Source: an uncultured Clostridia bacterium
Lineage (GTDB): Bacteria; Bacillota; Clostridia; Oscillospirales; Ruminococcaceae
NCBI GenBank assembly: GCA_947627945.1
Contig: CANQYC010000001.1
Coordinates: 1-51,555 of the forward strand
DNA length: 51,555 bases
Direction of reading: 5' to 3'
Below the pieces are notes generated by a model. It was not told the DNA's origin, ran no database searches, and saw nothing but the letters and a program-made list of their open reading frames with translations. A program made the translations under genes and the position numbers. Shown here in pieces: positions 9,940-27,743 of the stretch (positions are counted from its first letter, which is position 1; each line of letters begins with the position of its first letter).

Positions 9940-10377
9940 ATGAGGTTGAAAGGAAAGGTCGCTCCGTGGTTCTACGGGGTCATCGCCCTTGTGGCAGCAG
10001 TCGAGATCCCCATCCTGATCGTAAGCGTGTGGATAGAACCGGATCTGTTTGGGGCAGTGCTATCGCTTCTGGTGCTGATCTGCGTGGAATTTCTGTGCCT
10101 GTCCATTGTTGTCCGGAATTATGTGGCATTTCAGACGGATGCACTGCTTGTCGTCTTCGGATGTATCAAAAAGCGCATCCCCTACGATGAGATCACCAGT
10201 ATTTCTGCCGTCAGAGAGCCTTGGGCTTCCCTTGCTGCCTCCATGGACAGGATCAAGATCATGACAAAAAGCAAAGGGGATATCCTGATATCGGTCGTTG
10301 AGAAAAAACAGTTCTTCAGCGAACTGCAAAGCCGGCGACCCGATGCCGTGAGAGATCTTCCCCGGAATGAGGACTGA
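9940..10377 (+). CDS. membrane protein with bacterial PH domain (YdbS/YdbT-like)
   Basis: The ATG at 9940 follows AAGGAGG. There are two N-terminal TM helices, then a PH-like segment (IPYDEITSISAVREPWASLAASMDRIKI). Confidence 0.7.
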   Translation: MRLKGKVAPWFYGVIALVAAVEIPILIVSVWIEPDLFGAVLSLLVLICVEFLCLSIVVRNYVAFQTDALLVVFGCIKKRIPYDEITSISAVREPWASLAASMDRIKIMTKSKGDILISVVEKKQFFSELQSRRPDAVRDLPRNED

Positions 10378-10378
10378 C

Positions 10379-11365
10379 ATGGGATTTCTTTCATTCAACG
10401 AGAAATATTATACGGACGCACTCAAAAGGCTGGAGGGCAGGAAACTGGATAACAAGGAGCTGTACGAAGCAAAGCAGCTCCTCAAGCTCCTCGATGATCT
10501 GTCCGACGAGGGATATACGCTGCTGAATCACACGCTCGAAGAAAAATATGCCGTTCTTTCGAGGCTCCATGCCATTCTGAAAGCCCACAGCGAGGCACCG
10601 TTCCCGCTCCAAAACGCCGCATTTTCCGATGTGAGATACGGCACTGCCGAAATGGACATTGAGGCGGTCTGCGGGCGGCTGTCAGGGTATCTGCAGCAGT
10701 GCGCCGCCCCCTCGGAGGATCCGTTCCTTGCCGGCTTTCGGGATTACTGCCGGTGGATCTCATGGCAGCCCGGCACGGCATATGTGTTTTTGCTCCGTGA
10801 CACATTTTTGCCATATCTCTATTTCAGAGTAAATGGCAAAAATGCCCTGTATCCGTGGGTGATCAACCGGGACTTCCTGCGGCGGACTGCCGGGGAGAGC
10901 GTGGATGATCTCCTGCGGCTGCCCGTGTATGAGGCACTGGAAAGCGGTGTTCCGGACTATGTGGCATTCTCCGCATACTGCAAACCCCGCATACAGAAGG
11001 TACTGTGCAGGTATCCTGCTTTGGAAAGGATCCTCCGGGAGCTGCTCGGCACGATCCGGGAGAAGAAGATCCTTGTGATCGAGTCCGGCTATTGCGGGAC
11101 GATCCCGCTGACGCTTGCGGCACTGGATGAGCGTGTAGATCTCCGGTTGTATACGACAGCACCCTATCTGTACAAGATCTATCAGGAGAAGATCTTTTGC
11201 AGGCGATATGAACAGATCCGTTTATTCGAGACCTTGTATGCACAGGATGCCCTGATGAAATTTTCCTCCTACCGGAATGGGCATTTTTATGTCAAGACCG
11301 CCGCATACAACGAAATATGGGAGAAAGCCGCCGCAGAAGCCGCCGCCTTGCAGGGCGGGGAATAA
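10379..11365 (+). CDS. hypothetical protein
   Basis: This is the ORF-track ORF 10367..11365. The ATG at 10379 has GAGGA 5 nt upstream and lies just after the preceding stop. I recognise no family. Confidence 0.6.
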   Translation: MGFLSFNEKYYTDALKRLEGRKLDNKELYEAKQLLKLLDDLSDEGYTLLNHTLEEKYAVLSRLHAILKAHSEAPFPLQNAAFSDVRYGTAEMDIEAVCGRLSGYLQQCAAPSEDPFLAGFRDYCRWISWQPGTAYVFLLRDTFLPYLYFRVNGKNALYPWVINRDFLRRTAGESVDDLLRLPVYEALESGVPDYVAFSAYCKPRIQKVLCRYPALERILRELLGTIREKKILVIESGYCGTIPLTLAALDERVDLRLYTTAPYLYKIYQEKIFCRRYEQIRLFETLYAQDALMKFSSYRNGHFYVKTAAYNEIWEKAAAEAAALQGGE

Positions 11366-11378
11366 AAGCTGATACATC

Positions 11379-11415
11379 AAAATGCTCCGCAGCATTTCAG
11401 ACTGCGGAGCATTTT
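11379..11415. terminator. bidirectional intrinsic terminator
   Basis: AAAATGCTCCGCAG-9 nt loop-CTGCGGAGCATTTT, a 14-bp stem. It sits between convergent genes. Confidence 0.8.
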
Positions 11416-11417
11416 CT

Positions 11418-11516
11418 TCAATTCTGCAACAGCGGAAGAATGATAAAACCTGCAAACATCGCCAGAACCATCACAAGCACCAGTATGCGCATCCATGTAC
11501 TCTTTTTCGGCTTCAT
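11418..11516 (-). CDS. 32-aa membrane peptide
   Basis: Hand translation gives MKPKKSTWMRILVLVMVLAMFAGFIILPLLQN. AAGGAGG lies 7 nt upstream of the ATG. It is the last gene before the terminator. Confidence 0.5.
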   Translation of the reverse strand: MKPKKSTWMRILVLVMVLAMFAGFIILPLLQN

Positions 11517-11528
11517 GTCCATCCCTCC

Positions 11529-11936
11529 TTATTGTACCGTCGTCACCGTGGTCGTCTGCTCCTGTGCGGGTGCATCCGGCACCACCGGCAGTTCCCCTGC
11601 GCTGTCGGGAGTTTCCTCCGCAGCAGGTGCTGTCTCATCCGGAGCGAGCGTCTCATCCGGAGCCAGCGTTTCTCCGGGCGGCAGCGTGACCGGATCCCCG
11701 TTTTCATCCGTCTCCGGCGGCACGGTATCCGAGGTGACGGTCGTTGTTTCCCGCAGCTTATCCCAGATGCTGGTATTGGCAGTGGTGACAGCGATCTGCG
11801 AGGCGATGACCTTTCCGGCTTCCTTTTCCCGGCGGCGTTGGTTGACTTCGTCAATATTGTTCAGGGTATGCAGCCCGAATCCCAAAATGCAGATCATGAC
11901 GAGAATGGTGACCGCAAACCAGACAGTTCTTTTCAT
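11529..11936 (-). CDS. N-terminally membrane-anchored acidic Pro/Thr/Glu-rich protein
   Basis: The ATG at 11936 overlaps the upstream stop (ATGA), with GGAGGG upstream. There is a TM (VWFAVTILVMICILGFGL), then repeats (GETLAPDETLAPDETAPAAEETPD). Confidence 0.7.
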   Translation of the reverse strand: MKRTVWFAVTILVMICILGFGLHTLNNIDEVNQRRREKEAGKVIASQIAVTTANTSIWDKLRETTTVTSDTVPPETDENGDPVTLPPGETLAPDETLAPDETAPAAEETPDSAGELPVVPDAPAQEQTTTVTTVQ

Positions 11937-14287
11937 CTTGCATCCCTCCTGAGCATATAGGCAGAAACTTCTGTAAAGAGACTGTCGGCATCTTTCGGCT
12001 CGATGCCCCATGATGCCACACGGTCTGCCTCGATCTCGATCAGATCTCCTTCATGGACATCGGGGAGCGTCTCCGCTTCCTGATCGACACGGACGGTCAC
12101 AACGCCATTTTCCACACGTTCTACGATCGTCCACAGCAGTTCGATGCCATAGTCCACCTTCTCCGCCATTTCCTCACTGATCTCAAATTCCACACGGACG
12201 AATGCCCGGTCATACGGCGCAGCAAGTGCTTCCACAAACCGTGGGAATGTCTGTTTGGCAAGGCGGATCTTACGCAAAAACTCCGTATGCGTCCGGGGAT
12301 AGTCCGTGTGTTCCTCATCGTCGGCAACGCCTGCCTCTGTCGGCAGCACATCTCCGTCATCCGTCTTTATCAGCAGCATGCCGGCGGGTGTTTCCTTGCC
12401 AAGATCTTCCGGCAGCTCCGGACATTGTGCCCGGTACGATCCCAGATCTGCCCAGCAGAATGCATATTCCTGCTCACCGGATCGCATGGAGCCGAATGCT
12501 TCGCCGGCATCCGGCAGCATATTTCTGATCACACACTGTCCCGCTGCCTCGTCAAGCAGATCGACATAATTGGAATACACTTCCTCCGATGCACCGGCGA
12601 CCACCAGCTCACGCATGCCCAGACATACCAGACCGCAGGTCGTCATCCAGATCCTCGTTGTTCCGTCAACTTCTTCCCCGTAAAGCTGGATCCCGAACAG
12701 GTCATCCGGGGAGATGCTGTCTGCATTTTCTGCCGCATACTGTACCCAGAGCGGCGGATAGGCATGCCATGTATGCATATCTATGACACCGAGCATTTCC
12801 GGAAAGAGCTGATACAGCAGCTCCATGACATACTGGTAGTCCTGCTGCGGCTGCCCGCTGTACGTTGTCACCAGCAGATATTTCTGCGGGATGCCGAGCA
12901 TTTCCTCAAACGACTCCCGCTCAAATCCCCCGCATGGACGTGCAGGCAATCCCGGCGGCATCTGCGCCGCACGGAGCCGGTATTCCCGTATCTCTCCGTT
13001 TCTGCGCAGCATGAGATACAGCTCCTCCTCATCCGCATCACAGCTCAGCACTTCAACATCCTCCGGCATATGGAGACGCTCCGCCAGCTCCTGCATGGTG
13101 GGGGATACGCCCTCCGGCATCGTCACCGCCAGCACAGCCGGATCACTTCCGACAAGTCCATGTGACGTTCCTGACGGCTCTTCGAGGCGGAATTTTTCTG
13201 CCGCAGAGGCAAGATCTGCGGACAGCAGATCATTGTAGTAACTCGTGCCGTTCCGGGCATCGAGCTTGTCGGACTGCTCCTTTGCCTGCGCATAGAAATA
13301 GTCCCTTACTGCATCGAGCGAGATCCCCTCTTTTGTGACCGGCAGCGGCAGCACCCGCAGCAGCACATTCTTGGTGTAAGCAGTGTTGGTTTCCGGATCC
13401 CGGTTCGCATCTGCGCCCGTCTTGATCAGGCGGTAGGCACCCTGTGCATAGTTGATCCGGTACTGCGGATTATGGCAGTTGACCCAGTCGTTCACGCTCT
13501 GCTTGAACAGCACCCAGCCACGCTGCGGGTCTGTGGCACTGTAGACCTCAAGGAGCTTGCCTATCATCGACAGAAATGCGGGATCGCATCCGATAAGACG
13601 CTGGCAGCGGATGGCGTAATAGTTCGCCTCGTTCAGATCGCCCTTGTAAAGATAATAGTGCGCCAGCTGACAGTATGTGTCATGCGGGATCTCTGCACAG
13701 TGCTTTTCCCCGTTCAGCAGAGGCTGGGCAATGCGCAGTGCCTCCTCCTCGTCACCGAGCCGCAGTGCGACCTCCATGTCAAAGTTCATCTCACAGGCTT
13801 CGCAGTCGCTGTTCGCCCCCCGGCGATAGCGGTGGAATGCCTCATAGCATGCCGGCACCTTATCGGGATCCGCTTCGAGGTAGAATTTGCACTTTTTCAT
13901 GTACACGACCCGCAGGGAGTGACCGTATTTTTTGCTGCGCCTTTCAAATTCCTCCAAGTACCGTTCGATCTCCTCCCGGCTGATCTGATAGAAATCCTGC
14001 AAGTTTTCCACGACCCACTTGAAGCACTGCATCAGATCCTGACAGTTATCGTCCTCCAGTTCAGGATGTTCATCAAAGATCTGCACCAGCTCCGGAAAGC
14101 TCAGGATCGCCTGATAGCAGTCGCCGTGAAAAATGGACTCTTTGATGTAGTCGAACCGGAACCCCAGCCGCATGTCATGGGCAGACGCCTCGTCCGCCGC
14201 CTGTATCGCATTCTTGATCTCCCGCAGCCGCTCTGCGCCGTGGGGCATGCCGGAAATGCGCTTCATCAATGTATAAGGTTCAAACAC
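11933..14287 (-). CDS. 784-aa protein: N-terminal TPR-like helical domain (paralog of the upstream gene) plus a C-terminal extension of about 400 aa
   Basis: It has a GTG start with AAGGAGG 9 nt upstream. The first ~365 aa align by eye with ORF 14303..15385. The last ~100 aa (ELLWTIVERVENGVVTVRVDQ...GDLIEIEADRVASW) resemble a DUF2314/YegJ-type domain from memory. Confidence 0.8.
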   Translation of the reverse strand: MFEPYTLMKRISGMPHGAERLREIKNAIQAADEASAHDMRLGFRFDYIKESIFHGDCYQAILSFPELVQIFDEHPELEDDNCQDLMQCFKWVVENLQDFYQISREEIERYLEEFERRSKKYGHSLRVVYMKKCKFYLEADPDKVPACYEAFHRYRRGANSDCEACEMNFDMEVALRLGDEEEALRIAQPLLNGEKHCAEIPHDTYCQLAHYYLYKGDLNEANYYAIRCQRLIGCDPAFLSMIGKLLEVYSATDPQRGWVLFKQSVNDWVNCHNPQYRINYAQGAYRLIKTGADANRDPETNTAYTKNVLLRVLPLPVTKEGISLDAVRDYFYAQAKEQSDKLDARNGTSYYNDLLSADLASAAEKFRLEEPSGTSHGLVGSDPAVLAVTMPEGVSPTMQELAERLHMPEDVEVLSCDADEEELYLMLRRNGEIREYRLRAAQMPPGLPARPCGGFERESFEEMLGIPQKYLLVTTYSGQPQQDYQYVMELLYQLFPEMLGVIDMHTWHAYPPLWVQYAAENADSISPDDLFGIQLYGEEVDGTTRIWMTTCGLVCLGMRELVVAGASEEVYSNYVDLLDEAAGQCVIRNMLPDAGEAFGSMRSGEQEYAFCWADLGSYRAQCPELPEDLGKETPAGMLLIKTDDGDVLPTEAGVADDEEHTDYPRTHTEFLRKIRLAKQTFPRFVEALAAPYDRAFVRVEFEISEEMAEKVDYGIELLWTIVERVENGVVTVRVDQEAETLPDVHEGDLIEIEADRVASWGIEPKDADSLFTEVSAYMLRRDAR

Positions 14288-14302
14288 TGTGATATTCCTC
14301 CT

Positions 14303-15385
14303 TTATGTTTCTTGCTGATCACGGAAATGTCTCACCCGCCGCAGATAACAGTCCGTGCCGTTGCGTTTGTCAAACTGATCTGTCAATGCCTTTGCCGTGC
14401 GGTAGAAATGCGCCGACAGCCCTGTCAGGTCGTTCTCACACACTGCCGGATAGGCGGGGCTGTCCTTCGGCACCTGTACCGCCTGTGCCGAAAGTCCCTT
14501 CTTTGCGAGCGCATCAAACAGATGCACTGCACCGATCAGAAAATGCATCTGCATCCATGGGTTTTTGGAATCATTGCAAAGCGGGAAATTCCGGTTGAAG
14601 ATCTGCACCGCATGTTCCGGATCCGTCACACTGTACAGTGACACCAGTGTCCCGATCTGGTGCAGGTCAAAGGGATCACCGTCCACACGGCGTTCAAACT
14701 GCCGGGCATATTCCGCCGCCTTGTCATACTCTCCCCGGTACAGGTAGTAGCGGCAGAATTTATGCTGGGTAGAATGCGGAAGACAGTATGCTTTGAGCCG
14801 TCTTTCAAAAATGGGTCTTGCCGCCTCGATGGCATTTTCCTCCTCCCCGAAGGAGAGGTAGAATTCCACCCGGTAATTATAGCACAATGCCTTGCCGTCC
14901 GACATCCAATCGAGCGGTTCCTCCAGAAACCGGAAAAAATCCCTCGCTGCGATATTCTTGTCGATGTGCAGATAGATCATGCTGCGCTTCATGTAGTAGC
15001 TGCTCAGGGAATAGCCCTGCTCCTGTAACCGCTGACGGTAGAGACGGAAATAGCGGTCGATCTCCTGACGTGAGATCTGCGGGAATTCCTCCGTCGCCTC
15101 CATAATCCATTTGAAAGTGACGAGCATAGACCAGGAGATATTCCGATCTTCCTGCAGCTCCGGATGATCGTCATAGAGCTGGAGCAGCTCCGGGAACATG
15201 ATCAGTGCATAGTACCTGTCCCCGCAGAACACAGATTCCCTGATGTAATCATACCGGAACCAGAACTGCCAGCTCAGCGTACCCTGCCGATCAGCATCGT
15301 GGATGGCATCCCGCATGGCATTGAGGCGTGGCGTGCCACGTTCCAGTGTCTGAAAATCCTGTTCCCTCTGTTCAAAGGTCGGCAT
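14303..15385 (-). CDS. 360-aa TPR-like helical repeat protein
   Basis: The ATG at 15385 follows CAGGAGG and lies 12 nt after the HSP90-family stop. It contains helical-repeat-like segments (YYLYRGEYDKAAEYARQFER). Confidence 0.8.
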   Translation of the reverse strand: MPTFEQREQDFQTLERGTPRLNAMRDAIHDADRQGTLSWQFWFRYDYIRESVFCGDRYYALIMFPELLQLYDDHPELQEDRNISWSMLVTFKWIMEATEEFPQISRQEIDRYFRLYRQRLQEQGYSLSSYYMKRSMIYLHIDKNIAARDFFRFLEEPLDWMSDGKALCYNYRVEFYLSFGEEENAIEAARPIFERRLKAYCLPHSTQHKFCRYYLYRGEYDKAAEYARQFERRVDGDPFDLHQIGTLVSLYSVTDPEHAVQIFNRNFPLCNDSKNPWMQMHFLIGAVHLFDALAKKGLSAQAVQVPKDSPAYPAVCENDLTGLSAHFYRTAKALTDQFDKRNGTDCYLRRVRHFRDQQET

Positions 15386-15399
15386 ATCGTTACCTCCTG

Positions 15400-17175
15400 T
15401 TACATCGTGCCCCATTCGATCAGCTGAATAAGGTTGTCGTTGAGCAGTGCCATTTCACCGCCCTGCATCGGGAACCGTCCGGTCAGCAGTGCCTGCACAT
15501 AGAGGATCTCCAAGCAGACACGCACCTTTTCCGCATCCTCCAGTCCCGAAAGCCGCCTGATGAGCGGATTATTCCAGTTCAGGTAGAGCGTGGCACGGTG
15601 TTCTTCAAGCTCTCTGGCAAAGCTGTCGAGCATATTTCCAAAGAGGGGGCTGGAATGTTCCTTGGAATGCCGGATCTCCCGCAGGGTCTCGGCATTTCCA
15701 TCCATCATGTAAAACACCGGGAGCTGGGAGGGCGAGAATGCCCGCAATGCCGCATCGCAGTCAAAATCCTGTAACAGTGCCTTTGCCGTGCGCACCAGTC
15801 CATCTGCCTGCACCTGTGCGTCGGTGCTTGGTTCTTCCAGAAATTCCTCAAAAGTCGTCAGCTCGAGCGGACAGATGATCAGTTCCGGCTCATACTCCTG
15901 TAACATCCGCAGCAGTGCCACATCATAGACATAGCAGGCATTGAGAAGGAGCTGCCCCTGTGCGAGCATCATGGCGGAGGTGCGGTGGAATTGGTTGATG
16001 TCATTGGAAAAAGTGATCGGCTCACGCCGCTTGAGCAGTTCCTTGCCGGAAAGCTCTCCCATATTCGTCTCAAATTTCAGAAAGGGGATGAACGTCCTGA
16101 AAAACACCTCATCCTCGCAGGCGAGGGACTTGATCGCCATGAAGTGGATGCGGATCATCTCCTCGAGCAGCTCCGTATCGGTGCGGCTGAGCTGGATGAG
16201 ATAGTTCGAGATGCATTCGCTCAGCTCATCTCTTGCTGCGATGAGCAGATCATCCTCATAAAAGCCCTCTCGTGAAGCCGTGGGACGCAGCTTTGAGGTA
16301 TTCAGGAAGCAGCAGAGAAATCCCGACCACTTCGGCAGGATGGCATCGCCGTCCTCCGTCAGGAGCATATTTTTCAGGTAGATGCGGTGTCTGCTCTTGG
16401 CATGGGGCGAGACGGCATGGGGGAGTATGTAGGCAACGCCGCTGAAAAGCCCCTGTTTCGATTCCAGCGGGATGTAGCCTAAAAAATCCATCCCGAAGAT
16501 CTGTTTGCCGAGTGCGAGGACAGAGGCATCTGCCGATCCCCCCGGCTGGCGCATCTCATTGATACGGTACTCGCCGTCCGATGTCTGCATCATGACCGGG
16601 AACGGCAGGGGAAGTCCATAGTACCGCACCAGTTCGCAGATACGTTCCTCCTGAAAATACTGACCGCATCCCTTTTTGGCACGGATATAGATGGCAGTGC
16701 CGACCGCAGCATCCCCCGTAGGTATCTCCGTGATACGGTAGGTGCCGTCCGGTCTGCCGTGAAACTCATAGGCATGTTCCGGTTCCTTAGCGGAACGGGT
16801 GCGCAGCATGATCTCCTCCGTGACCATGAAACAGGAGAGCATCCCGATGCCGAAACGCCCGATATAGTCCTCTAAGATCCGCCCGGTCTGGAGATCCCGC
16901 TTTGAGCTTTGCCCAATAACGGCAAGAAACCGATGGATCTCCGGTTCGGTCAGACCGCTTCCATTATCTGTAAATATCAGACTTTCTCCGGGCACGACAG
17001 AGATCGTGATACGCCCCTCCTGAAAGCCGGGGTCGTCAAGCCGCCGGGCACTGATGGCATCCGTACCGTTCTGGAGCAGCTCCCGGATGAATACATCCGG
17101 GCTGCTGTAGAGGTGATTGGCAAGAATGTCGATCATGCCGCCGAGGTTGACTTTGAATACAAACGGTTCTGCCAT
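15400..17175 (-). CDS. HSP90-family (HtpG-like) GHKL ATPase, short paralog type
   Basis: IRELLQNGTDA (catalytic Glu and Asn), DNGSGL and GRFGIGMLSCF match the HSP90 N-domain. The ATG at 17175 is preceded by GAGGAA. The product is 591 aa. Confidence 0.88.
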   Translation of the reverse strand: MAEPFVFKVNLGGMIDILANHLYSSPDVFIRELLQNGTDAISARRLDDPGFQEGRITISVVPGESLIFTDNGSGLTEPEIHRFLAVIGQSSKRDLQTGRILEDYIGRFGIGMLSCFMVTEEIMLRTRSAKEPEHAYEFHGRPDGTYRITEIPTGDAAVGTAIYIRAKKGCGQYFQEERICELVRYYGLPLPFPVMMQTSDGEYRINEMRQPGGSADASVLALGKQIFGMDFLGYIPLESKQGLFSGVAYILPHAVSPHAKSRHRIYLKNMLLTEDGDAILPKWSGFLCCFLNTSKLRPTASREGFYEDDLLIAARDELSECISNYLIQLSRTDTELLEEMIRIHFMAIKSLACEDEVFFRTFIPFLKFETNMGELSGKELLKRREPITFSNDINQFHRTSAMMLAQGQLLLNACYVYDVALLRMLQEYEPELIICPLELTTFEEFLEEPSTDAQVQADGLVRTAKALLQDFDCDAALRAFSPSQLPVFYMMDGNAETLREIRHSKEHSSPLFGNMLDSFARELEEHRATLYLNWNNPLIRRLSGLEDAEKVRVCLEILYVQALLTGRFPMQGGEMALLNDNLIQLIEWGTM

Positions 17176-17212
17176 GTGACAGTTCCTCACTTTCCATTGT
17201 TTACTTCTTTAT

Positions 17213-17241
17213 ATCATACCATATTTTCAGATAAATTACAA
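17213..17241 (-). promoter_or_regulatory. candidate promoter of the HSP90-family operon
   Basis: On the minus strand it reads TTGTAA-17 nt-TATGAT. It is preceded by the A/T block CTTTTTTTACAAAAACCC (17242-17260). Confidence 0.5.
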
Positions 17242-17277
17242 GGGTTTTTGTAAAAAAAGCTGTGGGTATTGAATAAA

Positions 17278-17397
17278 GGGGGGGTTTGGGTTTGCCCCAC
17301 CCCCCGACCCCCTCCCCTGAAGGGGAGGGGGGCGATAGTGCGGGGGGCTTCGCCCCCCTGCACCCCCGCTTTAATGCGAGGGCTTCGCCCCTGCATC
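17278..17397. repeat. G/C-rich cluster of hairpins (REP-like element)
   Basis: The cluster contains G7 and C-runs. There is a perfect hairpin CCCCCTCCCC-TGAA-GGGGAGGGGG (17308-17331). The unit GnC-TTC-GCn-CTGCA occurs twice (17342-17364 and 17380-17397). Confidence 0.7.
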
Positions 17398-17535
17398 TTT
17401 GTCATATACCAAATATCCCCATTTTCTCCGATAAATGTTTTGTGGAAAATGCATATTTCCCCTTTACTTTTTCCTGAAAATATGGTATACTATATATACA
17501 CAAAACATAGGTGTTTTTTGGAGGGATCCTTTGTT

Positions 17536-19443
17536 ATGGAAGAAATGATCTCGCACTTTGCCGTCATTGTGGCTGGTATCGATGAAGAGTACCAGAACAG
17601 CGTGATTGACGGCATCGTGAGCTGTGCGAAAGCCAGCAATGCGAACATCTCCTGCTTTACGGCGTTCGGCGGTGTGATCGCAAGCAACCACTTTGACATC
17701 GGTGAGTACAACATTTATAATCTTGTGAATTATGACAAATTTGACGGCGTCATCCTGCTGACCAATACCATCAGTGATGCGGGAGAGAAAAAGAAGATCA
17801 TCCAGCGTGTCAAGGCGTCCGGCATCCCGGCAGTGTATCTTGACTGCAATGACGACCCGGAGGCGTACAATATCCGGATCGACAATACCAGAGCGATGCG
17901 TGACATCGTGCAGCATGTCATTACCAAGCACCATGCACGCACGATCAACTTCATCTCCGGTCCGCTCTCCAATCCCGAGGCACAGGACAGATACGAAGCC
18001 TTCCTGCATGTCATGGCGGAAAACAAGCTCATCGTCGATGCACGCAGGGTCTATTTCGGTGAATTCCGTGCCGTGGACGGAGAACGGGCAGTCCGTGAAC
18101 TGCTCCGCTCCGGCATGTCGATGCCGGATGCGATCATCTGTGCCAACGATGCCATGGCACTGGCGGCAATGCGCATCTTAGAGCGCAACCACTACGAAGT
18201 GCCGGAGGATGTCATTGTCACCGGTTTTGACAATACTTACAATGCAAGGCATTACTACCCGGCACTCACGACCGTGGAACGTCCGCTCTACGATGCCGGA
18301 TACAAGGCATGCGAAGTGCTGCTGAAAGTGACTGCCGGACAGCCCTGCGAAAAGGTCATCTCTTTGCAGGCAACGCCGGTATTCATGGAGAGCTGCGGCT
18401 GTAACCAAGCCGTCGCAGAGGATGTCAAAAACTACAAAAAGAGTACCTATCAGGTCATTGACAGCTGCCGTTCGGACATCTCTTTGCTCAACCGGATGAC
18501 CTCCGAGCTGGCAGAGACGGAGACGACGGAGGAAAACATCAAGGCGATCGGGGAATTCATGCACGAGATGGAGTGCGAGATCTGTGCGCTCTGCCTCTGT
18601 TCAGAGTGGAACGGTGCCTTCGGCACAAGGGCAGACGAGTACCAGATCAGCGGCTATACCAAGACGATGTATGCGCCTTTGATCTGGTCAAAGGAAGGCA
18701 TCGCCTGTGTGGACAGTTTCAACTGCAGCGATATGTTCCCGATCCCGCAGGAGGACGGCGGGCATGTCAATTTCTTCCTGCCGCTGCATTTCCGGGAGAG
18801 GTGTCTCGGCTATTACATCATCACGGACAGCGAGTTCCCGACCAAGAGCATGCTCTGCCACTCGATCATGATGAATATTTCCAATTCCATCGAAAACATC
18901 CGGAAACTGCTGCATCTCAACAGTGTCATCGAGGAGCTTGACAGACTGTATGTCATTGATCCCCTCACCGGCATCTACAACCGCAACGGCTTCATCCGGG
19001 AGGCAGATACGCTCTACCGCCGCTGTGAGGACAGCAAGGAGCTGCTGATGATCTCCTTCATCGACATGGACGGCTTGAAGCTCATCAATGACAATTTCGG
19101 ACACAAGGAAGGCGATTTTGCATTGCAGCGGCTTGCCAGCGTGATCAAGGACTGCTGCGGCAGCAGCTATATCTGTGCCCGGTTCGGCGGCGATGAATTC
19201 ATCATCCTCGGTGTCGGAACGAGTGAGGACGATGCCGCATCACTGGAACGTGCCTTTACCAAGCGGCTCGCAGATCTCAACCACATCCTGCACAAGCCCT
19301 ATGAGCTGTCCGCCAGCATAGGTTCGTTCGTATCCGGCATCGAGCCGGGTGTGACGCTGTTCAACATGATCACAAAGGCAGATCAGATGATGTATGAGAA
19401 AAAGAAGCGCAAAAAAACATCCCGCTATCTGCGGAAAGCATAA
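17536..19443 (+). CDS. diguanylate cyclase (GGDEF) with an N-terminal LacI-type ligand-binding core and no HTH
   Basis: The ATG at 17536 follows GGAGGGA. PDAIICANDAMALAAMRIL...VIVTGFDN is the LacI-family sugar-binding core. The C-terminus has DPLTGIYNRNGF and RFGGDEFII. I see no TM segments. Confidence 0.88.
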   Translation: MEEMISHFAVIVAGIDEEYQNSVIDGIVSCAKASNANISCFTAFGGVIASNHFDIGEYNIYNLVNYDKFDGVILLTNTISDAGEKKKIIQRVKASGIPAVYLDCNDDPEAYNIRIDNTRAMRDIVQHVITKHHARTINFISGPLSNPEAQDRYEAFLHVMAENKLIVDARRVYFGEFRAVDGERAVRELLRSGMSMPDAIICANDAMALAAMRILERNHYEVPEDVIVTGFDNTYNARHYYPALTTVERPLYDAGYKACEVLLKVTAGQPCEKVISLQATPVFMESCGCNQAVAEDVKNYKKSTYQVIDSCRSDISLLNRMTSELAETETTEENIKAIGEFMHEMECEICALCLCSEWNGAFGTRADEYQISGYTKTMYAPLIWSKEGIACVDSFNCSDMFPIPQEDGGHVNFFLPLHFRERCLGYYIITDSEFPTKSMLCHSIMMNISNSIENIRKLLHLNSVIEELDRLYVIDPLTGIYNRNGFIREADTLYRRCEDSKELLMISFIDMDGLKLINDNFGHKEGDFALQRLASVIKDCCGSSYICARFGGDEFIILGVGTSEDDAASLERAFTKRLADLNHILHKPYELSASIGSFVSGIEPGVTLFNMITKADQMMYEKKKRKKTSRYLRKA

Positions 19444-19476: not shown

Positions 19477-20244
19477 TCATGAGATCTGTTCTGCCTCATA
19501 CCATGCCCGGCTGACGACCGCCCGCTTCCATCGGCTGTAGGCAGCGGCATCCGCCGGATCCGGCTCCTGCCCGGCAGCCAGTGCGCACAGGACACGCTGC
19601 CCTGCCTGCCGTCCTCCGGATGGCAGCGGCAATGGCTCCGGCGGCTGCATTTCGCCCGCCCATGCAGTGACAGCGACCGCCGGCGGCTGCCCGTCCGCAT
19701 CTGAGATGCGGGCTTCTTCGGCAGTGAGCGGCTGTTCCTGCAAGGTGAGTTTCAGAAAGGGCGGGAGCAGCACTTCCGCCTCCTCCGCCTTGGCATATAC
19801 CGGCAGCACCTCCGCCATGGGGATGCAGGGCGTCCCTGCCGGCACCCGGTAGTGCATGAGGGCGATGCCCCGCCTGTCCCGGTAGGCATCCAAAAATCCC
19901 GCCGTGGAGGTGGAAGTGAACGAGACCGTTGCGCCCCGTTCCCGGTGCAGCAGATAATCCGAGAATCGTTCCACCCGGCAGAGATGCATCGGCTGGCTGG
20001 CTTTGCAGCAGCGGAACACAGACAGCAGCACTGCCAGAAGCCTGCAAAGGCGGTCTTGTTCCCCAAGGATCGCCGGATCCAGCCGTTTCCCCTCTGCCGC
20101 TCTGGCACGTTCTGTCATGATGCCCGGATAGAACAGTGCATTCAGCACCACATACGCTTTTGCATTCCCCCAGAAAGGATCACTGCCCGTCACATCCCCG
20201 GTATAATAGCGCAGGGCTGCCACCTGTTCATTCGTCAGTGTCAT
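19477..20244 (-). CDS. ADP-ribosyltransferase, C3/VIP2-like R-S-E type, with no signal peptide
   Basis: The N-terminus ALRYYTGD...VVLNALF, an Arg region LCRVERF, an STS motif (FTSTSTAGF) and EAEVLLPP (ExE) are present. The ATG at 20244 follows GGGAGAA and lies 17 nt inside the sortase gene. Confidence 0.8.
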   Translation of the reverse strand: MTLTNEQVAALRYYTGDVTGSDPFWGNAKAYVVLNALFYPGIMTERARAAEGKRLDPAILGEQDRLCRLLAVLLSVFRCCKASQPMHLCRVERFSDYLLHRERGATVSFTSTSTAGFLDAYRDRRGIALMHYRVPAGTPCIPMAEVLPVYAKAEEAEVLLPPFLKLTLQEQPLTAEEARISDADGQPPAVAVTAWAGEMQPPEPLPLPSGGRQAGQRVLCALAAGQEPDPADAAAYSRWKRAVVSRAWYEAEQIS

Positions 20245-21145
20245 GGCGTTTCTCCCATGCCGGTGCCGTCTGCACGGCGACCTGTGTCTCCGGGTATCCC
20301 TCGGCGGGGGCATAGCTCTCCAGATCGGTAAAGTCCCCGATACACCGGGCAAATACCACGCACCGCATCCCGTCATGGGAACCGGTATTGCACGTCTGCA
20401 AAGCAATGAGACGGTCTACCGAATCCCTCGGCGGGTCATCCTCCCCGTACCAGACGAGGGATGTGCTGCGGATATTCTCGTAGTAGGTGCGGTATTCCTC
20501 CCGGTTGAGGTCAATGTAGTTCCAGTAATCAAAGGCAGCCCCCGCTTCACCGCTGATGACATTGACCGAAAGCACCTTGTACAGATACCGGTGTTCCAGT
20601 GAAGCGACTTCTATGTAACGGTGCGCCATGCCCCATTCCTCGACCTTGTAGTTCTTGATGGCGTGCAGCATCGTGCCGTTGCCCATATTATGCCCGTATA
20701 TCAGCGCATTGTCGGTATCGTCCAGATCGCACCGCCAGTCCGCAAAGATCGCACCCGCATAGCTCGGCTGCCCCGTCCATGCATGTGTCGTATAAAATTC
20801 ATTGTTCGTGGTCTGGACGACGGGATAGTCGATCACCGTGTCCTGTATCCGCACCCAGCCGACCACATCGGAGACAGACTGGTGACAGGAGCGGACATGT
20901 GCCATGTCAATGCCGCATGTGTAGACCGGCTCGGTCTCCGGCTCCGTTTCCGGCTCCGTCGGGGGGATCCACACATGCTCCTCCCGGAGAAACTGCGGTG
21001 TGCCTGTCAACTGCTGTTCACTGGCTGCACGGGTGAACAGACTGAACCGGGATCCTGCGTAACAGAGCATCAGGCATATCGCCCCCGCCAGGACCAACAG
21101 CAGACCGGGGAGCAGCAGCCAGAGTCTTATCTGTTTTCGTGCCAT
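20228..21145 (-). CDS. srtB: class B sortase
   Basis: An N-terminal TM anchor is followed by VVGWVRIQDTVIDYPVVQ, IYGHNMGNGTMLHAIKNY and LIALQTCNTGSHDGMRCVVFA (catalytic Cys and Arg). The ATG at 21145 follows AAAGGAGGAG. Confidence 0.88.
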   Translation of the reverse strand: MARKQIRLWLLLPGLLLVLAGAICLMLCYAGSRFSLFTRAASEQQLTGTPQFLREEHVWIPPTEPETEPETEPVYTCGIDMAHVRSCHQSVSDVVGWVRIQDTVIDYPVVQTTNNEFYTTHAWTGQPSYAGAIFADWRCDLDDTDNALIYGHNMGNGTMLHAIKNYKVEEWGMAHRYIEVASLEHRYLYKVLSVNVISGEAGAAFDYWNYIDLNREEYRTYYENIRSTSLVWYGEDDPPRDSVDRLIALQTCNTGSHDGMRCVVFARCIGDFTDLESYAPAEGYPETQVAVQTAPAWEKRHDTDE

Positions 21146-21182
21146 GGGTCTCCTCCTTTCTGAGATAACTGTCCATACTATT

Positions 21183-21211
21183 ATTATACCTAAAAATTTC
21201 ATTTGCGTCAA
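21183..21211 (-). promoter_or_regulatory. sigma-A promoter of srtB (TTGACG-17-TATAAT) with an upstream A/T block
   Basis: The minus-strand sequence is GTGCTTTTTTACAAAAATCCC TTGACG caaatgaaatttttagg TATAAT. Confidence 0.6.
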
Positions 21212-21288
21212 GGGATTTTTGTAAAAAAGCACGAAAATTCATATTTCCCCGGTCAGCTCCCCCTGCGATGCAGAAAATGGACAAACAG

Positions 21289-21372
21289 GGCATCTCGGGA
21301 GCGCAGACACTGCGCCGACCTTTGCCGCCACAGGCGGCATTGGGAGGCATCTCGGGAGCGCAGACACTGCGC
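21289..21372 (+). repeat. 27-nt direct repeat (2 copies, 57-nt period), each copy containing a small hairpin
   Basis: GGCATCTCGGGAGCGCAGACACTGCGC occurs at 21289-21315 and 21346-21372. Each copy holds GCGCAG-ACA-CTGCGC. The second copy ends 2 nt before the asnS -35 box. Confidence 0.85.
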
Positions 21373-21374
21373 AC

Positions 21375-21403
21375 TTGACAAATCGCTCCGGATGTGTTAT
21401 AAT
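21375..21403 (+). promoter_or_regulatory. sigma-A promoter of asnS (TTGACA-17-TGtTATAAT)
   Basis: The consensus hexamers have 17-nt spacing. The sequence is nearly identical to the tRNA-Pro promoter at 23975-24003. Confidence 0.7.
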
Positions 21404-21434
21404 AAATCTGGTTTTTTCGGAAAGGATGGGAGTT

Positions 21435-22811
21435 ATGAAGCATACAGATATCAAAGAGATTTTCAGGGATCACGCATTCCTCGGTCAGCAGGTCACCGTC
21501 TGCGGCTGGGTGCGCACTTCCCGCAACTCCAAAACGATGGCATTTATTGCCCTCAACGACGGCACATCCCTGCCGCATTTGCAGATCGTCATTGACAAAG
21601 CCTCCGGGATCGCCTATGAAGATGCGATGCCGCTCGGGACGTCTCTGAAGGTCGTGGGGACGGTCGTAGAGGGGCAGAACGGCGGTGTGGAGATCAATGC
21701 GGAGGAGATCACTGTGCTGGGTGCCTGCCCGCCGGAGTATCCCCTGCAAAAAAAGCGGCATACGCTCGAATTTCTGCGGACAATGCCGCATCTTCGGGGC
21801 AGGACGAACCTGTTCAATGCCGTGCAGCGTGTACGCTCGATCCTTGCACAGGCGATACATGAGTATTTCCGGGAGCGGAATTTTGTGTATGTGAATACAC
21901 CGCTCATCACGGGCAGTGACTGCGAGGGCGCAGGCGAGATGTTTCAGGTCACGACCATCGGCTATGCACCGGACGGCACCTATCCGGATGCCGAGGCGTA
22001 CTATGCGGCGGATTTCTTCGGCAAGCGTGCGGGGCTTTCTGTCTCCGGTCAGCTTGAAGGCGAGGTCGCTGCCATGTCCATGGGAAAGATCTACACCTTT
22101 GGTCCCTCTTTCCGTGCAGAAAACAGCAATACCCCGAAGCATCTGGCGGAATTCTGGCACATCGAGCCGGAAGTCGCCTTTGCGGAGCTGCCGGATGTCA
22201 TGGAACTGGCAGAGGATATGGTGAAGCATGTTATCCGGGTCGTACTCGATACCTGCCCGGATGAGATGGCATTCTTTGACCAGTATGTGGAAAAGGGTCT
22301 GATCGCCCGTCTCGAAGACCTGATCTCCCATGACTTTGCGGTCTGCGACTACACAGAAGCGATCCGGCTCCTGAAAGAGTCCGGGGAGACATTCCAGTAT
22401 CCCGTGGAGTGGGGCTGTGATCTGCAAACAGAGCATGAGCGTTACATTTCCGAGAAAGTGTTCCGGCGTGCTACATTTGTGACAAATTATCCCAAGGAGA
22501 TCAAGTCTTTCTATATGAAGCTCAATCCCGACGGCAAGACGGTGGCAGCGGTGGATCTGCTGGTGCCGGGTGTCGGGGAGATCGTCGGCGGCAGCGAACG
22601 TGAAGCGGACTATGACAAGCTGGTCGCTGCCATGGAGGAGCGGGGCATGAACCTTGCGCCGTACAGCGACTATCTGGATCTGCGGCGGTACGGCTCTGTG
22701 CCGCACGGCGGCTTCGGGCTCGGTTTTGAACGGCTCATCATGTATGTGACCGGTGTTGCCAATATCCGGGACGTTATCCAGTACCCGAGAACTGCCGGTG
22801 CCATTCACTGA
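21435..22811 (+). CDS. asnS: asparagine--tRNA ligase
   Basis: 458 aa. It has an N-terminal OB-fold (VTVCGWVRTSRNSK) and class II motifs (FRAENSNTPKHLAEFWHIEPE, GGSEREADYD, HGGFGLGFERL). Confidence 0.95.
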   Translation: MKHTDIKEIFRDHAFLGQQVTVCGWVRTSRNSKTMAFIALNDGTSLPHLQIVIDKASGIAYEDAMPLGTSLKVVGTVVEGQNGGVEINAEEITVLGACPPEYPLQKKRHTLEFLRTMPHLRGRTNLFNAVQRVRSILAQAIHEYFRERNFVYVNTPLITGSDCEGAGEMFQVTTIGYAPDGTYPDAEAYYAADFFGKRAGLSVSGQLEGEVAAMSMGKIYTFGPSFRAENSNTPKHLAEFWHIEPEVAFAELPDVMELAEDMVKHVIRVVLDTCPDEMAFFDQYVEKGLIARLEDLISHDFAVCDYTEAIRLLKESGETFQYPVEWGCDLQTEHERYISEKVFRRATFVTNYPKEIKSFYMKLNPDGKTVAAVDLLVPGVGEIVGGSEREADYDKLVAAMEERGMNLAPYSDYLDLRRYGSVPHGGFGLGFERLIMYVTGVANIRDVIQYPRTAGAIH

Positions 22812-22827
22812 ACAGGAGGTTTTTAGC

Positions 22828-23841
22828 GTGTCAAGATCATTATACATTCCCGAGGGCTATGCCCCGAAGCTGGATCTGCGGGAAACGCAGCATGCGATCA
22901 AATATATCAAGGATGTATTCCAGCAGGCACTTTCCTTTGCACTGACGCTCGACCGTGTCACCGCACCGCTGATCGTGGAAAAGGGCAGCGGCATCAATGA
23001 TGATCTCAACGGCGTGGAGCGCAAGGTCGATTTTGATATCAAGGAGATCAACGGCAAGGAAGCCGAAGTGGTGCAGTCGCTTGCCAAATGGAAGCGCATG
23101 GCACTCTATCGCTACGGCTATCAGCCGGGCGAGGGCATCTATACTGATATGAATGCCATCCGCCGGGATGATGATACCGACAATCTGCATTCGATCTTTG
23201 TGGATCAGTGGGACTGGGAAAAGGTCATCACCCGCAGCGAGCGGACAAAGGACTATCTGCGGGATACCGTCCGCTCCATCGTCAAGGCGATCGTCTATAC
23301 CAAGAGAAAAGTACAGCTCCGCTACCCGGTACTGAAACAGGAGATCGTGGAGTCTCCCCTGTTCATCACATCGGAAGATCTGGCAGTGAAGTATCCGGAT
23401 CTGACACCGAGAGAGCGGGAAAATGCGATCTGCGAGGATCACGGCACCGTGTTCATCATGCAAATCGGCGGCAAAATGTCCAACGGGGAACGCCATGACG
23501 GGCGTGCGCCGGACTATGACGACTGGTCACTCAACGGTGACCTGTTTATATGGGATGAGACATTGCAGCGGGCACTGGAAGTTTCTTCCATGGGCATCCG
23601 TGTCGATGCACAGGCACTCGCAAGCCAGCTTGCCGAGGCAGGTGCCGAAGACCGTTCCCGCTTCCCGTTCCACCGGATGATCGCCGAGGATACGCTGCCG
23701 CTCACCATCGGCGGCGGCATCGGACAGTCCCGTCTTTGCATGCTCCTGCTCGAGAAAGCACACATCGGTGAGGTACAGGCATCTGTCTGGCCGGAGGAGA
23801 TGGTGCAGCAGTGCAAGGCGGCAGGGATCACGCTTCTGTAA
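22828..23841 (+). CDS. asnA: aspartate--ammonia ligase (asparagine synthetase A)
   Basis: The GTG at 22828 follows AGGAGG. LDLRETQHAIKYIKDVF, DDLNGVERKV and GGGIGQSRLCMLLL are AsnA hallmarks. Confidence 0.92.
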   Translation: MSRSLYIPEGYAPKLDLRETQHAIKYIKDVFQQALSFALTLDRVTAPLIVEKGSGINDDLNGVERKVDFDIKEINGKEAEVVQSLAKWKRMALYRYGYQPGEGIYTDMNAIRRDDDTDNLHSIFVDQWDWEKVITRSERTKDYLRDTVRSIVKAIVYTKRKVQLRYPVLKQEIVESPLFITSEDLAVKYPDLTPRERENAICEDHGTVFIMQIGGKMSNGERHDGRAPDYDDWSLNGDLFIWDETLQRALEVSSMGIRVDAQALASQLAEAGAEDRSRFPFHRMIAEDTLPLTIGGGIGQSRLCMLLLEKAHIGEVQASVWPEEMVQQCKAAGITLL

Positions 23842-27300: not shown

Positions 27301-27743
27301 TGGGGACAGATCTCCACAAGGTATGGCGTAACGAGGACGGTTCCCCGCAGCCGGACGGCTTTGCGGAGACGCCGGAGAACGGTACCTACGCTTCTATCGG
27401 CTACCATATGCAGAAGGGCGTGACACAGATCCCGACTCCGGCGATCGGATATGGCAGCAGCACAGAGCCTGTCGAGCCGACAGAAACACCGACCGAGACG
27501 CCCGAACCGACCGAGACAACGCCATCCGTTACAAAGGACTACGGCAATGTCAACGAGGATAATGAGATCTCCATTTCTGACGTGATCCAGCTGAACAAGT
27601 ATCTGCTTGGCGACACGAACGCCGTTTCTGAACAGGGCTTGCAAAATGCAGACGTAGATGATAACGGTATGATAGAGTCTGTGGATTCTCTCAACATTCT
27701 CAAGTACTGTGTACAGCTGATCAGTGAATTTCCTGTGAAGTAA
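24369..27743 (+). CDS. secreted bimodular pectate lyase (PL1-like + PL9-like beta-helix modules) with a C-terminal type I dockerin
   Basis: There is a signal peptide. PL1 motifs are IWVHHCDM...GDGALD...SRHPRIR...HSYNNYY. A Pro/Thr linker (TEPPVTEPPVTEAPPTEPQPTDPQPTDPKPTDP) follows. The second beta-helix has NADGFAAKL...NNSDDGWDLY...GNGFKLGG. The dockerin is NEDNEISISDVIQLNKYLLG...DVDDNGMIESVDSLNILKY. Confidence 0.9.
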   Translation: MKMNTMKKALAALLAAATVASSVGMAGVQALTITPNDLLTSTASSSTVEVTASAGYAEGAYAEWGAVSGASGYNVYADGTKVDSMLIRQYPSCFRVDVVGLKAGSHTLRIVPILDGKEDASKAAEVTASATAHERTGFAFVNGTSSGAYNEDGTLKSDATVIYVTEANKDTVTVTMPNKKGVDTELTGVQNIITNMKDNTKCGPLCVRLIGNITDPADMPKGDLMVDAAVSGLTVEGIGTDTVFNGFGLVIKNSSNVEVRNIGFMNCDSDEGDNVGLQQKNDHIWVHHCDMFYGSAGSDADQVKGDGALDTKTSTYVTHSYNHFWDNGKCNLQGMKSESTENYATYHHNWYDHSDSRHPRIRTCTVHSYNNYYDGNAKYGVGATMGCSVFVENNYFRNCKYPMLASMQGSDIAEGEGTFSGEDGGVIKSYGNYMTGQKGYVTYQQDGTEFDAYEASSRDEQVPSSVKTKQGGTAYNNFDTNSSLMYSYTPDPAEDVPAIVMANAGRVQGGDFKWTFTEADDASYTVDQALKDALVAYKGTVVAIGSGFTDSTETPPATEPPVTEPPVTEAPPTEPQPTDPQPTDPKPTDPVVTPSVSYTQVIYASPKGGGSGKTESDPTDVLTAIQTVPAGGIIYLLAGTYQYTDTILIDQNNSGEAGKYKTIAAYQGADVVFDFTGQAVGNSARGFVLDGSYWHFYGFEITQAGDNGMLLSGDHNIIEMMVFNDNEDTGLQISRYRTDAAAIADWPSDNLIKNCTSKNNCDEATMENADGFAAKLTCGEGNVFDGCLSYNNSDDGWDLYAKEETGPIGVVTIRNCVAFRNGFTEDGRGYGDADGNGFKLGGGGIGTRHVVENCLAFENLNCGFTDNNNPEFGDMKNCTAYNNGVGGKGKANYMVYRCATTATFENMMSYLNTDLLSQTGAAGIKISNDKFVGSMKNSIYYNSKYYLATQETMENGSKLGDVITPETTDFISLHAPEMGTDLHKVWRNEDGSPQPDGFAETPENGTYASIGYHMQKGVTQIPTPAIGYGSSTEPVEPTETPTETPEPTETTPSVTKDYGNVNEDNEISISDVIQLNKYLLGDTNAVSEQGLQNADVDDNGMIESVDSLNILKYCVQLISEFPVK

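Follow-up and report, generated by a model that had tools for sequence, protein, structure and literature searches.

The window, that is the whole stretch of 51,555 nucleotides analysed here (contig CANQYC010000001.1 of an uncultured Clostridia bacterium of the Ruminococcaceae), carries an operon of five genes that begins with an HSP90-family ATPase and continues with two paralogous helical proteins, which resemble tetratricopeptide repeat (TPR) proteins and share a domain that is called HEL in the following. The ATPase and its HEL partner are probably the ancient two-gene core of a dedicated chaperone module in which an HSP90 paralog works with an adaptor. The ATPase family is known and named, RefSeq listing such proteins as 'HSP90 family protein'; new are the partner family, which RefSeq annotates as "hypothetical protein", and the pairing. 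Canonical HtpG has been stated to have no co-chaperones, and Hsp90 co-chaperones have been stated to be "found only in eukaryotes" (PMC9478669). In full-text searches of the literature, no description of a bacterial HSP90 partner, of DUF4026 (a domain fused to one of the two HEL domains of the window), or of the function of lmo0940-0942 has been found, and searches for HtpG2 gave nothing relevant.

The evidence that carries this interpretation is the gene linkage. Relatives of the ATPase were scanned in one genome per species, and the best 80 loci, with ATPases 37-77% identical to the query, were kept; 74 of them have at least 1.2 kb of sequence downstream, and in these the linkage was counted by a local hmmsearch with a HEL profile. 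The HEL gene lies directly downstream of the HSP90 gene in 65 of the 74 loci, directly upstream in one and nearby in another one, which makes 67 loci with HEL in total, and the linkage is found in Bacillota, Actinomycetota, Planctomycetota, Myxococcota, Acidobacteriota and Pseudomonadota. The sampled loci belong to Oscillospiraceae, Lachnospiraceae, Tissierella, Paenibacillus, Saccharibacillus and Listeria, to Streptomyces and Promicromonospora, to Pyrinomonadaceae and other Acidobacteriota, to many Planctomycetota, to Corallococcus, Archangium and Bradymonadales, to Undibacterium, and to one metagenome-assembled genome (MAG) of the Saprospiraceae. Two or more HEL genes are present in 14 loci, and four further actinobacterial loci have the same HSP90-HEL order. 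In 66 loci the spacing between the stop of HSP90 and the start of HEL was determined; it is negative in 39 of them, 25 of these having a 4-nt overlap, and amounts to 0-20 nt in a further 18. In Streptomyces and other Actinobacteria, the HEL gene begins 3 nt past, or overlaps with, an HSP90 gene of 608-616 amino acids (aa). Such an overlap of stop and start, or a spacing of 0-20 nt, is a signature of translational coupling. An all-versus-all clustering of the neighbourhood open reading frames (ORFs) of the 80 loci found no other neighbour family that is conserved across phyla. In a preliminary description of the locus, which was made from the window alone, a dedicated module of an HSP90 with TPR-like partners had been proposed, to be checked by the co-conservation of the genes with this HtpG subtype. 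The co-conservation of the HSP90-HEL pair in several phyla bears this out, with the restriction that the conserved core consists of two genes and not of five. The cassette of five genes recurs in MAGs of Oscillospiraceae, where it has three different chromosomal flanks.

In the window, the operon comprises the following elements, all on the minus strand:

17213-17241 (-): promoter, sigma-70-like, TTGTAA-17-TATGAT with extended TG, 9 of 12 matches in the consensus scan
15400-17175 (-): HSP90-family ATPase of 591 aa, PRK14083 / probable HtpG group C type
14303-15385 (-): HEL1, TPR-like helical protein of 360 aa, a derived paralog without the Cys triad
11933-14287 (-): protein of 784 aa, consisting of HEL2, DUF4026_N/DUF4026_C and DUF2314
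13217-14287 (-): HEL2, the N-terminal helical domain of the 784-aa protein (aa 1-357)
13682-13804 (-): codons of the HEL2 Cys triad and His (C162, C165, C197, H202), a putative metal/redox site
12449-13129 (-): DUF4026_N (aa 387-521) and DUF4026_C (aa 539-613) of the 784-aa protein
12002-12268 (-): DUF2314 (YegJ-like; 'Imm34'), aa 674-762 of the 784-aa protein
11529-11936 (-): single-pass membrane protein of 135 aa, its ATG overlapping the TGA of the 784-aa gene as ATGA
11418-11516 or 11418-11522 (-): transmembrane (TM) peptide of 32-34 aa, with AGGAGG 7 nt before the ATG
11379-11415 (-): intrinsic terminator hairpin with a 15-bp stem, -24.3 kcal/mol, z -4.7

The five ORFs follow each other in the same direction at 11418-17190. 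The longest ORF of the ATPase begins with a GTG at 17190, and its likely start is the ATG at 17175, which has a GAGG motif before it; HEL1 starts 14 nt past the ATPase stop, and the 784-aa protein starts with a GTG at 14287, 15 nt past the HEL1 stop. The terminator hairpin is absent from the list of the consensus scan, but in a comparison with shuffled sequences none of 200 shuffles folds equally well; its position also suits the convergent gene at 10367-11365. With these data, the five co-directional genes, the shared promoter and strong terminator, and the ATGA junction of the acidic, TM-anchored protein are as they had been described, and only the spacing of 12 nt that had been given for ATPase and HEL1 has to be corrected.

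The ATPase had been called HtpG-like, which is right insofar as it belongs to the HSP90 family, but it is a member of the separate PRK14083 family and no canonical HtpG. It matches the NCBIfam model NF010683 (PRK14083, "HSP90 family protein") with 621.8 bits at a cutoff of 455, from residue 11 to 594 of 596 and from profile position 7 to 595 of 604 (numbering of the longest ORF), whereas the canonical HtpG model NF003555 gives 148.6 bits, with residues 12-214 as the best stretch, and its cutoff of 371 is not reached. By this full-length, equivalog-level match of 622 bits, the ATPase itself is not distinct from the PRK14083 / NF010683 family; the difference is the near-constant partner gene, which is mentioned neither in the family description nor in the searched literature. 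The ATP-site signature is intact, as had been noticed before: the motifs ELLQN(GTDA), DNGSGL and GRFGIGMLS are present, and E32, N36, D70, G72, G74, G106, G109 and G111 are invariant between ATPases from Clostridia and Streptomyces. The same holds for the catalytic Arg of the middle domain, R302 of 'TASRE', and the segment 'LRPTASRE' aligns with 'IPLNLSRE' of TRAP1. The intact catalytic motifs suggest that the ATPase is catalytically competent. Like canonical HtpG, it has a GHKL N-domain, a middle-domain catalytic Arg loop and a similar overall length, and it differs from canonical HtpG by its coupled partner gene. It can be aligned to TRAP1 and HtpG across the N and M domains, including the catalytic loop; the similarity to HtpG of Escherichia coli is limited to the N-domain (residues 11-202), and the C-terminal third, which lies inside the NF010683 profile, matches the C-domain of TRAP1 with only 1.3 bits. 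A solved structure for this subfamily was not found in a PDB search, in which the best match had an E value of ~1e-23. Judged by size and species only, the ATPase is probably of the type that Chen et al. 2006 described as 'HtpG group C'. HTPG2 of Streptomyces coelicolor, a member of group C, has 615 aa (PMC1525184), and a Streptomyces HSP90 found here matches it in this size.

The partner domain is the less familiar half of the pair. HEL1 and residues 14-351 of the 784-aa protein are 34% identical (E 2e-57), which confirms the paralogy that had been seen by eye, and no Pfam, NCBIfam or PADLOC family was matched by HEL1 or by the HEL2 region. The AlphaFold2 model of HEL1 (pLDDT 94.6, pTM 0.91) is all-alpha with 19 helices, and a Foldseek search with this model found alpha-solenoids such as designed PPR proteins, NprR, Rap, APC and LGN, with a best E value of ~1e-4 and TM-scores of 0.45-0.5. 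In HEL homologs of other taxa there are single TPR-repeat Pfam matches at aa ~215-250, and a HEL of Listeria has TPR_12 and TPR_1 matches above the curated cutoffs. "TPR-like" is a fair label for this solenoid family, which is not a member of a known co-chaperone family, and with a resemblance to generic TPR/PPR solenoids only and no Pfam or NCBIfam match, the helical proteins match no known enzyme family, a match that would have spoken against the preliminary reading. An exhaustive profile search showed the HEL family to comprise 1,994 clusters (50% identity) at E<=1e-3, of which 1,456 remain at E<=1e-10, the proteins having mostly 350-380 aa. C-terminal additions differ by lineage and are missing in most bacteria. 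HELs of ~700 aa from some Clostridia MAGs (labelled Ruminococcus/Clostridiales) have an unrelated C-terminal domain of ~330 aa, for which a shared origin with DUF4026/DUF2314 was rejected (hhalign probability 0.3), and HELs of Actinobacteria with 963-1039 aa have long extensions with a few TPR-repeat matches. A constant HEL domain with a C-terminus that varies by lineage suggests that HEL links the cycle of the ATPase to targets that differ between lineages.

In the combination of an HSP90 ATPase with a TPR-like alpha-solenoid that can bear extra domains, the pair resembles eukaryotic HSP90 with its TPR co-chaperones (Hop/Sti1, PP5, FKBP51/52, CHIP, Tom70), but no homology to the latter was detected. 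Of these proteins, only Tom70 was matched in Foldseek, on ranks 42 and 45 of the listed matches (E>0.03), and the TPR domains of Hop, PP5, FKBP or CHIP are absent from the top 50 matches. The Cys triad and the FD.RNG motif of HEL are not known from the eukaryotic proteins, and the pairing is by operon here.

The Cys triad is part of a signature that came out of an alignment of 96 HEL domains, 62 of which are non-redundant at 60% identity. The most conserved positions read [ST]DCxAC[ED]…C.E.P[HQ]…FD.RNG, and the Cys columns are occupied by Cys to 81-84% in the non-redundant set. All three Cys are present in 75 of the 96 domains, two in none, one in 3 and none in 18, which indicates that the triad is kept or lost as a unit. 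HEL2 has all three (SDCEACE / HCAEIPH / LDARNGT) and HEL1 has none (SDGKALC / AYCLPH / FDKRNGT), and all short paralogs of the Oscillospiraceae cassette likewise lack the three Cys. With a profile made from non-cassette HELs only, HEL2 scores 337 bits versus 313 bits for HEL1, and the N-domains of the long proteins generally outscore the short paralogs. As HEL2 keeps the triad and has the higher out-group score, the ancestral, orthodox partner domain is the one in the 784-aa protein, and on these sequence grounds the 360-aa HEL1 is to be regarded as a lineage-specific, degenerate duplicate, which reverses the emphasis of the first reading. The Cys-less paralog has been kept under purifying selection beside the Cys-bearing copy. 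In the HEL1 model, the CxxC position is at the N-terminus of helix 165-178 and the positions of the third Cys and the His are just before helix 204-216, which are the same ends of neighbouring repeats. From the proximity that these helix positions imply, the Cys triad, together with the His, is a putative shared zinc or redox site.

Tight linkage and coupling would suit a chaperone with its client no less than one with its adaptor, and HEL could instead be an obligate client or cargo of the HSP90 paralog, or an independent protein that shares its operon, for example a metal-binding scaffold that needs the ATPase for folding or metal loading. The Cys triad suggests a cofactor whose insertion perhaps has to be assisted. 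In Nocardia miyunensis (locus L007, 6581-10992), moreover, a 663-aa HEL with the full Cys triad follows an AAA+ ATPase (AAA_2/AAA_5) and a VWA_CoxE protein and not an HSP90, and CoxD/CoxE-like AAA+/vWA pairs are of a type known for metal-cluster insertion (PMC7159879). Nevertheless, a 350-aa all-helical solenoid that is modelled with such a high pLDDT (94.6) is no obvious difficult-to-fold client, the tandem HEL paralogs at 14 loci and the varied C-terminal fusions are more typical of adaptors, and the purifying selection on a Cys-less paralog next to a Cys-bearing one also speaks against such a role. By sequence alone the adaptor and client models are inseparable, and a role as client or as mere operon companion is considered rather unlikely in view of these latter points. 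The systems of MoxR/CoxD AAA+ ATPases with vWA/CoxE proteins (Kaur et al. 2020, PMC7159879) are comparable to the pair proposed here in that a chaperone-like ATPase is combined with a scaffold or adaptor that has a variable C-terminus; they differ in that the ATPase of the window operon is of the GHKL/HSP90 type, that no vWA protein is encoded in the operon, and that most HELs have no effector domain.

The C-terminal half of the 784-aa protein is another lineage-specific feature. The Pfam match to DUF4026_N is clear (E 1.5e-9, score 38.5, cutoff 27), that to DUF4026_C has E 1.3e-4 and a score of 22.8, which is below the cutoff of 27, and DUF2314 is matched with E 1.1e-4 and 22.8 bits at a cutoff of 22. 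Among 47 aligned sequences (the C-terminal part from the window and 46 homologs), DUF4026_N, DUF4026_C and DUF2314 are matched by 46, 44 and 41, respectively, and the DUF2314/YegJ-like end that had been recognized in the translation is thereby supported. A word-index search with this C-terminal half alone yielded 8,000 candidates and none that was significant; relatives were recovered with a four-sequence full-length profile instead. The DUF4026-DUF2314 extension was seen only in Oscillospiraceae/Ruminococcus proteins. Its AlphaFold2 model (aa 359-784) has a pLDDT of 93.8, and no PDB relative was found, neither by Foldseek at E<0.001 nor by a profile search of PDB sequences. That DUF4026 could be SuFu-like ('Imm-SuFu family 2') is at most conceivable; no member matched the SUFU Pfam family, and no PDB fold match was found. 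In E. coli K-12 (2147674-2153128; locus L094, 3675-9129), YegJ, the type protein of DUF2314, is encoded among yegD (HSP70 family), yegI (Ser/Thr kinase), pphC (phosphatase) and yegL (vWA); a DUF2314 protein beside a non-canonical chaperone paralog parallels the fusion in the window, as an anecdote from a single genome.

With these domains, a conflict system, in the sense of defence or immunity, has to be considered, in which the GHKL ATPase would be an NTP-dependent motor or switch, HEL a TPR sensor or scaffold, and the variable C-termini effector or immunity modules. DUF2314 has been classed as the immunity domain Imm34, for which fusions with other Imm domains and TPRs in polyimmunity proteins, and with TM helices, have been reported (Zhang et al. 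2012, PMC3482391), and it is the C-terminal 426 aa with DUF4026_N, DUF4026_C and DUF2314 that the 784-aa protein has in common with such proteins. A core that stays constant while the C-terminus varies is typically seen in conflict systems, in Listeria two HEL genes have a SUKH (SMI1/KNR4) gene downstream, the Nocardia HEL beside an AAA+/vWA pair recalls MoxR-vWA systems (PMC7159879), and there are weak PADLOC matches to TmtA and REase_II. These PADLOC-DB matches are, however, limited to the ~100-aa Bergerat ATP-binding region (best E 8.5e-10) of models that have 695-1782 positions, and the other four proteins of the operon have no match in PADLOC-DB. There is no toxin gene or array of immunity genes near the window operon, neither the HEL fusion nor the linkage to HSP90 has been described for polyimmunity proteins, and in the 80 loci no toxin, nuclease or defence gene recurs beside the pair. 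Most of the best 150 HEL relatives listed are bare proteins of 350-380 aa without an effector domain, and HSP90/GHKL systems are not mentioned in PMC7159879. The genomic surroundings point in the same direction: the neighbours in the window are housekeeping or environmental genes (ABC transporter, two-component system, bPH protein, GGDEF protein, pectate lyase, AmtB), and synteny is stable in seven Streptomyces genomes. Plasmid matches are few and mostly on very large replicons (0.2-2.9 Mb), two being on small Xanthomonas plasmids, and phage matches are few as well, the closest ones being short unannotated records. It is thus unlikely that the pair serves in conflict. An origin from mobile elements has been rejected as well, the few plasmid and phage matches showing no enrichment.

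The two tail genes are real genes and not chance ORFs, as their sequences are conserved across 11 loci, and the acidic, TM-anchored protein and the 32-aa TM peptide of the preliminary description can both be retained. The 135-aa protein has one N-terminal TM helix with a conserved segment next to the membrane, whereas its tail, which is acidic and rich in Pro and Thr, is variable; homologs of 109-153 aa are encoded at the same position after the long gene in 11 of 11 related Oscillospiraceae cassette loci and share the pattern MKRIV..TM..N.I.E.NQ.RRE..GE..AS..TTATTSIWD.LR. In the TM peptide, the basic N-terminus is followed by a hydrophobic core and by a conserved LPLLQN end, and the pattern KPKKS..MRI.VL....L.GF..LPLLQN is found in peptides of 32-41 aa, again in all 11 loci. 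By their distribution in the sampled loci, the two tail genes are outside the universal core and confined to Oscillospiraceae/Ruminococcus. The architecture of the peptide, from the basic N-terminus to the conserved C-terminal LPLLQN, would also be compatible with a secreted signal of the SHP or Phr type, for which the TPR-like proteins of the Oscillospiraceae cassette would be receptors of the RNPP/Rgg type, and NprR and Rap are indeed among the Foldseek matches of HEL1 with TM-scores of ~0.5. This explanation is nevertheless very improbable. The similarity to NprR and Rap is of the generic TPR kind, at E values of 7e-3 or worse, HEL contains neither a helix-turn-helix or other DNA-binding domain nor any further output domain, most HSP90-HEL loci lack the peptide, and the whole peptide is conserved and not its tail alone, as is expected of a membrane-resident helix.

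If the HSP90 paralog and HEL form a chaperone module, translational coupling would keep the synthesis of the adaptor in step with that of the ATPase, and the adaptor would most likely bind the HSP90 dimer as an adaptor or co-chaperone. Its Cys-x2-Cys…Cys(…His) cluster would bind zinc or sense the redox state, the invariant FD-x-RNG motif being a further conserved feature of the partner domain, and the lineage-specific C-terminal modules would select the targets and couple the ATPase cycle to them. In the Oscillospiraceae cassette, the partner has been duplicated; the 360-aa copy has lost the Cys, and the other copy has kept them and gained DUF4026-DUF2314, presumably as a protein-binding module. 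The two small membrane proteins have joined the operon there and are probably either membrane tethers of the machine or its local clients; together with the HEL paralogs, they would bring the machine to the membrane or supply it with clients from the vicinity of the membrane.

Some observations weigh against such a module. About 7 of the 74 HSP90 genes have no HEL neighbour, being followed, for example, by DUF1275 (L017) or by a pyrimidine nucleoside phosphorylase gene (L051), and the Nocardia HEL beside AAA+/VWA_CoxE indicates that HEL is not strictly HSP90-specific, so that the domain may serve other chaperone-like ATPases, too. A conserved acidic C-terminus like EEVD was not found in the HSP90 proteins, which end in …LIEWGTM, …EWGLGDE, …EWGIGA, …EWGVS or …HALRKDS, and without such a conserved tail the TPR-clamp (EEVD) mode of eukaryotes is unlikely. 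The CIRCE heat-shock operator was not found in the window, and a role as a classical stress chaperone is thus not indicated. In two Ruminococcus/Oscillospiraceae loci (L015, 6849-7943; L024, 7919-8944), the single HEL has none of the three Cys and the stretch that was fetched contains no paralog with Cys; these loci are exceptions, as a Cys-less copy otherwise occurs beside a Cys-bearing one. The Cys-less HEL gene of L015 is upstream of HSP90. The spatial closeness of the three Cys is deduced from helix ends in the secondary structure of a model, and the complex of HSP90 and HEL and its function are predictions from genomics. A dedicated pair of HSP90 paralog and adaptor nevertheless agrees best with the linkage. 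The more far-reaching view of a widespread and ancient bacterial HSP90 co-chaperone system, whose TPR-like adaptor serves a basal HSP90 paralog (PRK14083 / HtpG group C) as its dedicated partner, bears a zinc or redox centre of the type Cys3(-His), is C-terminally modular, and is wired to the membrane in Oscillospiraceae by two small TM proteins, is tentative and should be taken as a possibility worth considering.

Several loci have additional genes beside the pair. In Listeria monocytogenes NCTC7974 (L092, 3980-9078), the gene order is fri, HSP90, two HELs with Cys triad ('hypothetical protein'), SMI1/KNR4 (SUKH) and a low-molecular-weight tyrosine phosphatase, which offers a genetically tractable model of the module with another 'immunity-type' domain beside the pair. 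In Streptomyces (L006, 6109-7095; L091, 4096-5085; L093, 3935-4912), a conserved protein of ~325-329 aa without a Pfam family is encoded directly upstream of HSP90 on the same strand and may be an extra actinobacterial component, and in an Oscillospiraceae MAG (L001, 4933-6084), an SseB / SseB_C gene is directly upstream of HSP90 and co-directional. A Peripla_BP-GGDEF diguanylate cyclase adjoins HSP90 in eight Oscillospiraceae loci (17536-19443 (+) in the window, and L002, L003, L009, L010, L011, L013 and L032); its gene is co-directional and 16-43 nt upstream of HSP90 in six of them, ~1.4 kb upstream in one, and divergent in the window. This neighbourhood could reflect a functional link to cyclic di-GMP or plain synteny.

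Within the window, the promoter of the HSP90 operon (17210-17244, minus strand) and the divergent promoter of the Peripla_BP-GGDEF gene (17460-17494, plus strand) are 35-nt inverted copies with 77% complementarity. They share TGAAAATATGGTAT, a sequence without any other occurrence in the window and with none in the 94 loci fetched, and this suggests a local promoter duplication or co-regulation. Between the two promoters, at 17280-17400, there is a G+C-rich palindromic block with the inverted repeats CGACCCCCTCCCCT/AGGGGAGGGGGGCG and the direct repeat GGGCTTCGCCCC, which occurs twice; the block resembles a repeat element that has been inserted here, and it makes the ORF call of the GGDEF gene too long at the upstream end. 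Three neighbouring ORFs have no Pfam match, namely those at 19477-20406 (minus strand, 309 aa), 21018-22847 (minus strand, 609 aa) and 10367-11365 (plus strand, 332 aa); in NCBIfam, there was no match for the 309- and 609-aa ORFs at E<=0.05 and none for the 332-aa ORF at E<=0.1, and the 309-aa ORF matched no PDB sequence. A by-eye guess that the 309-aa ORF encodes an R-S-E ADP-ribosyltransferase found no support in Pfam, NCBIfam or PDB sequences and was abandoned. At 24369-27743 (plus strand), a pectate lyase of 1124 aa with beta-helix domains and a C-terminal dockerin is encoded. Taken together with the GH9 genes with dockerins that adjoin related cassettes (L001, L002), this lyase indicates a fibre-degrading Oscillospiraceae/Ruminococcus host of the cellulosome type.

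The locus is in conflict with the premise that bacteria have no HSP90 co-chaperones, as a coupled pair is found in ~90% of the sampled loci and in several phyla, and if the more far-reaching view of a bacterial co-chaperone system holds true, HSP90 co-chaperones could no longer be called an invention of eukaryotes. Whether bacteria have HSP90 helpers can be tested in Streptomyces, Paenibacillus, Myxococcota and Listeria monocytogenes, in the last of these with lmo0942 and the two genes that follow it. The diagnostic signature motif [ST]DCxAC[ED]…C.E.P[HQ]…FD.RNG points to a metal- or redox-dependent step, DUF4026 and DUF2314 would gain a concrete chaperone context, and a family of ~2,000 clusters of orphan proteins would obtain its first functional handle.

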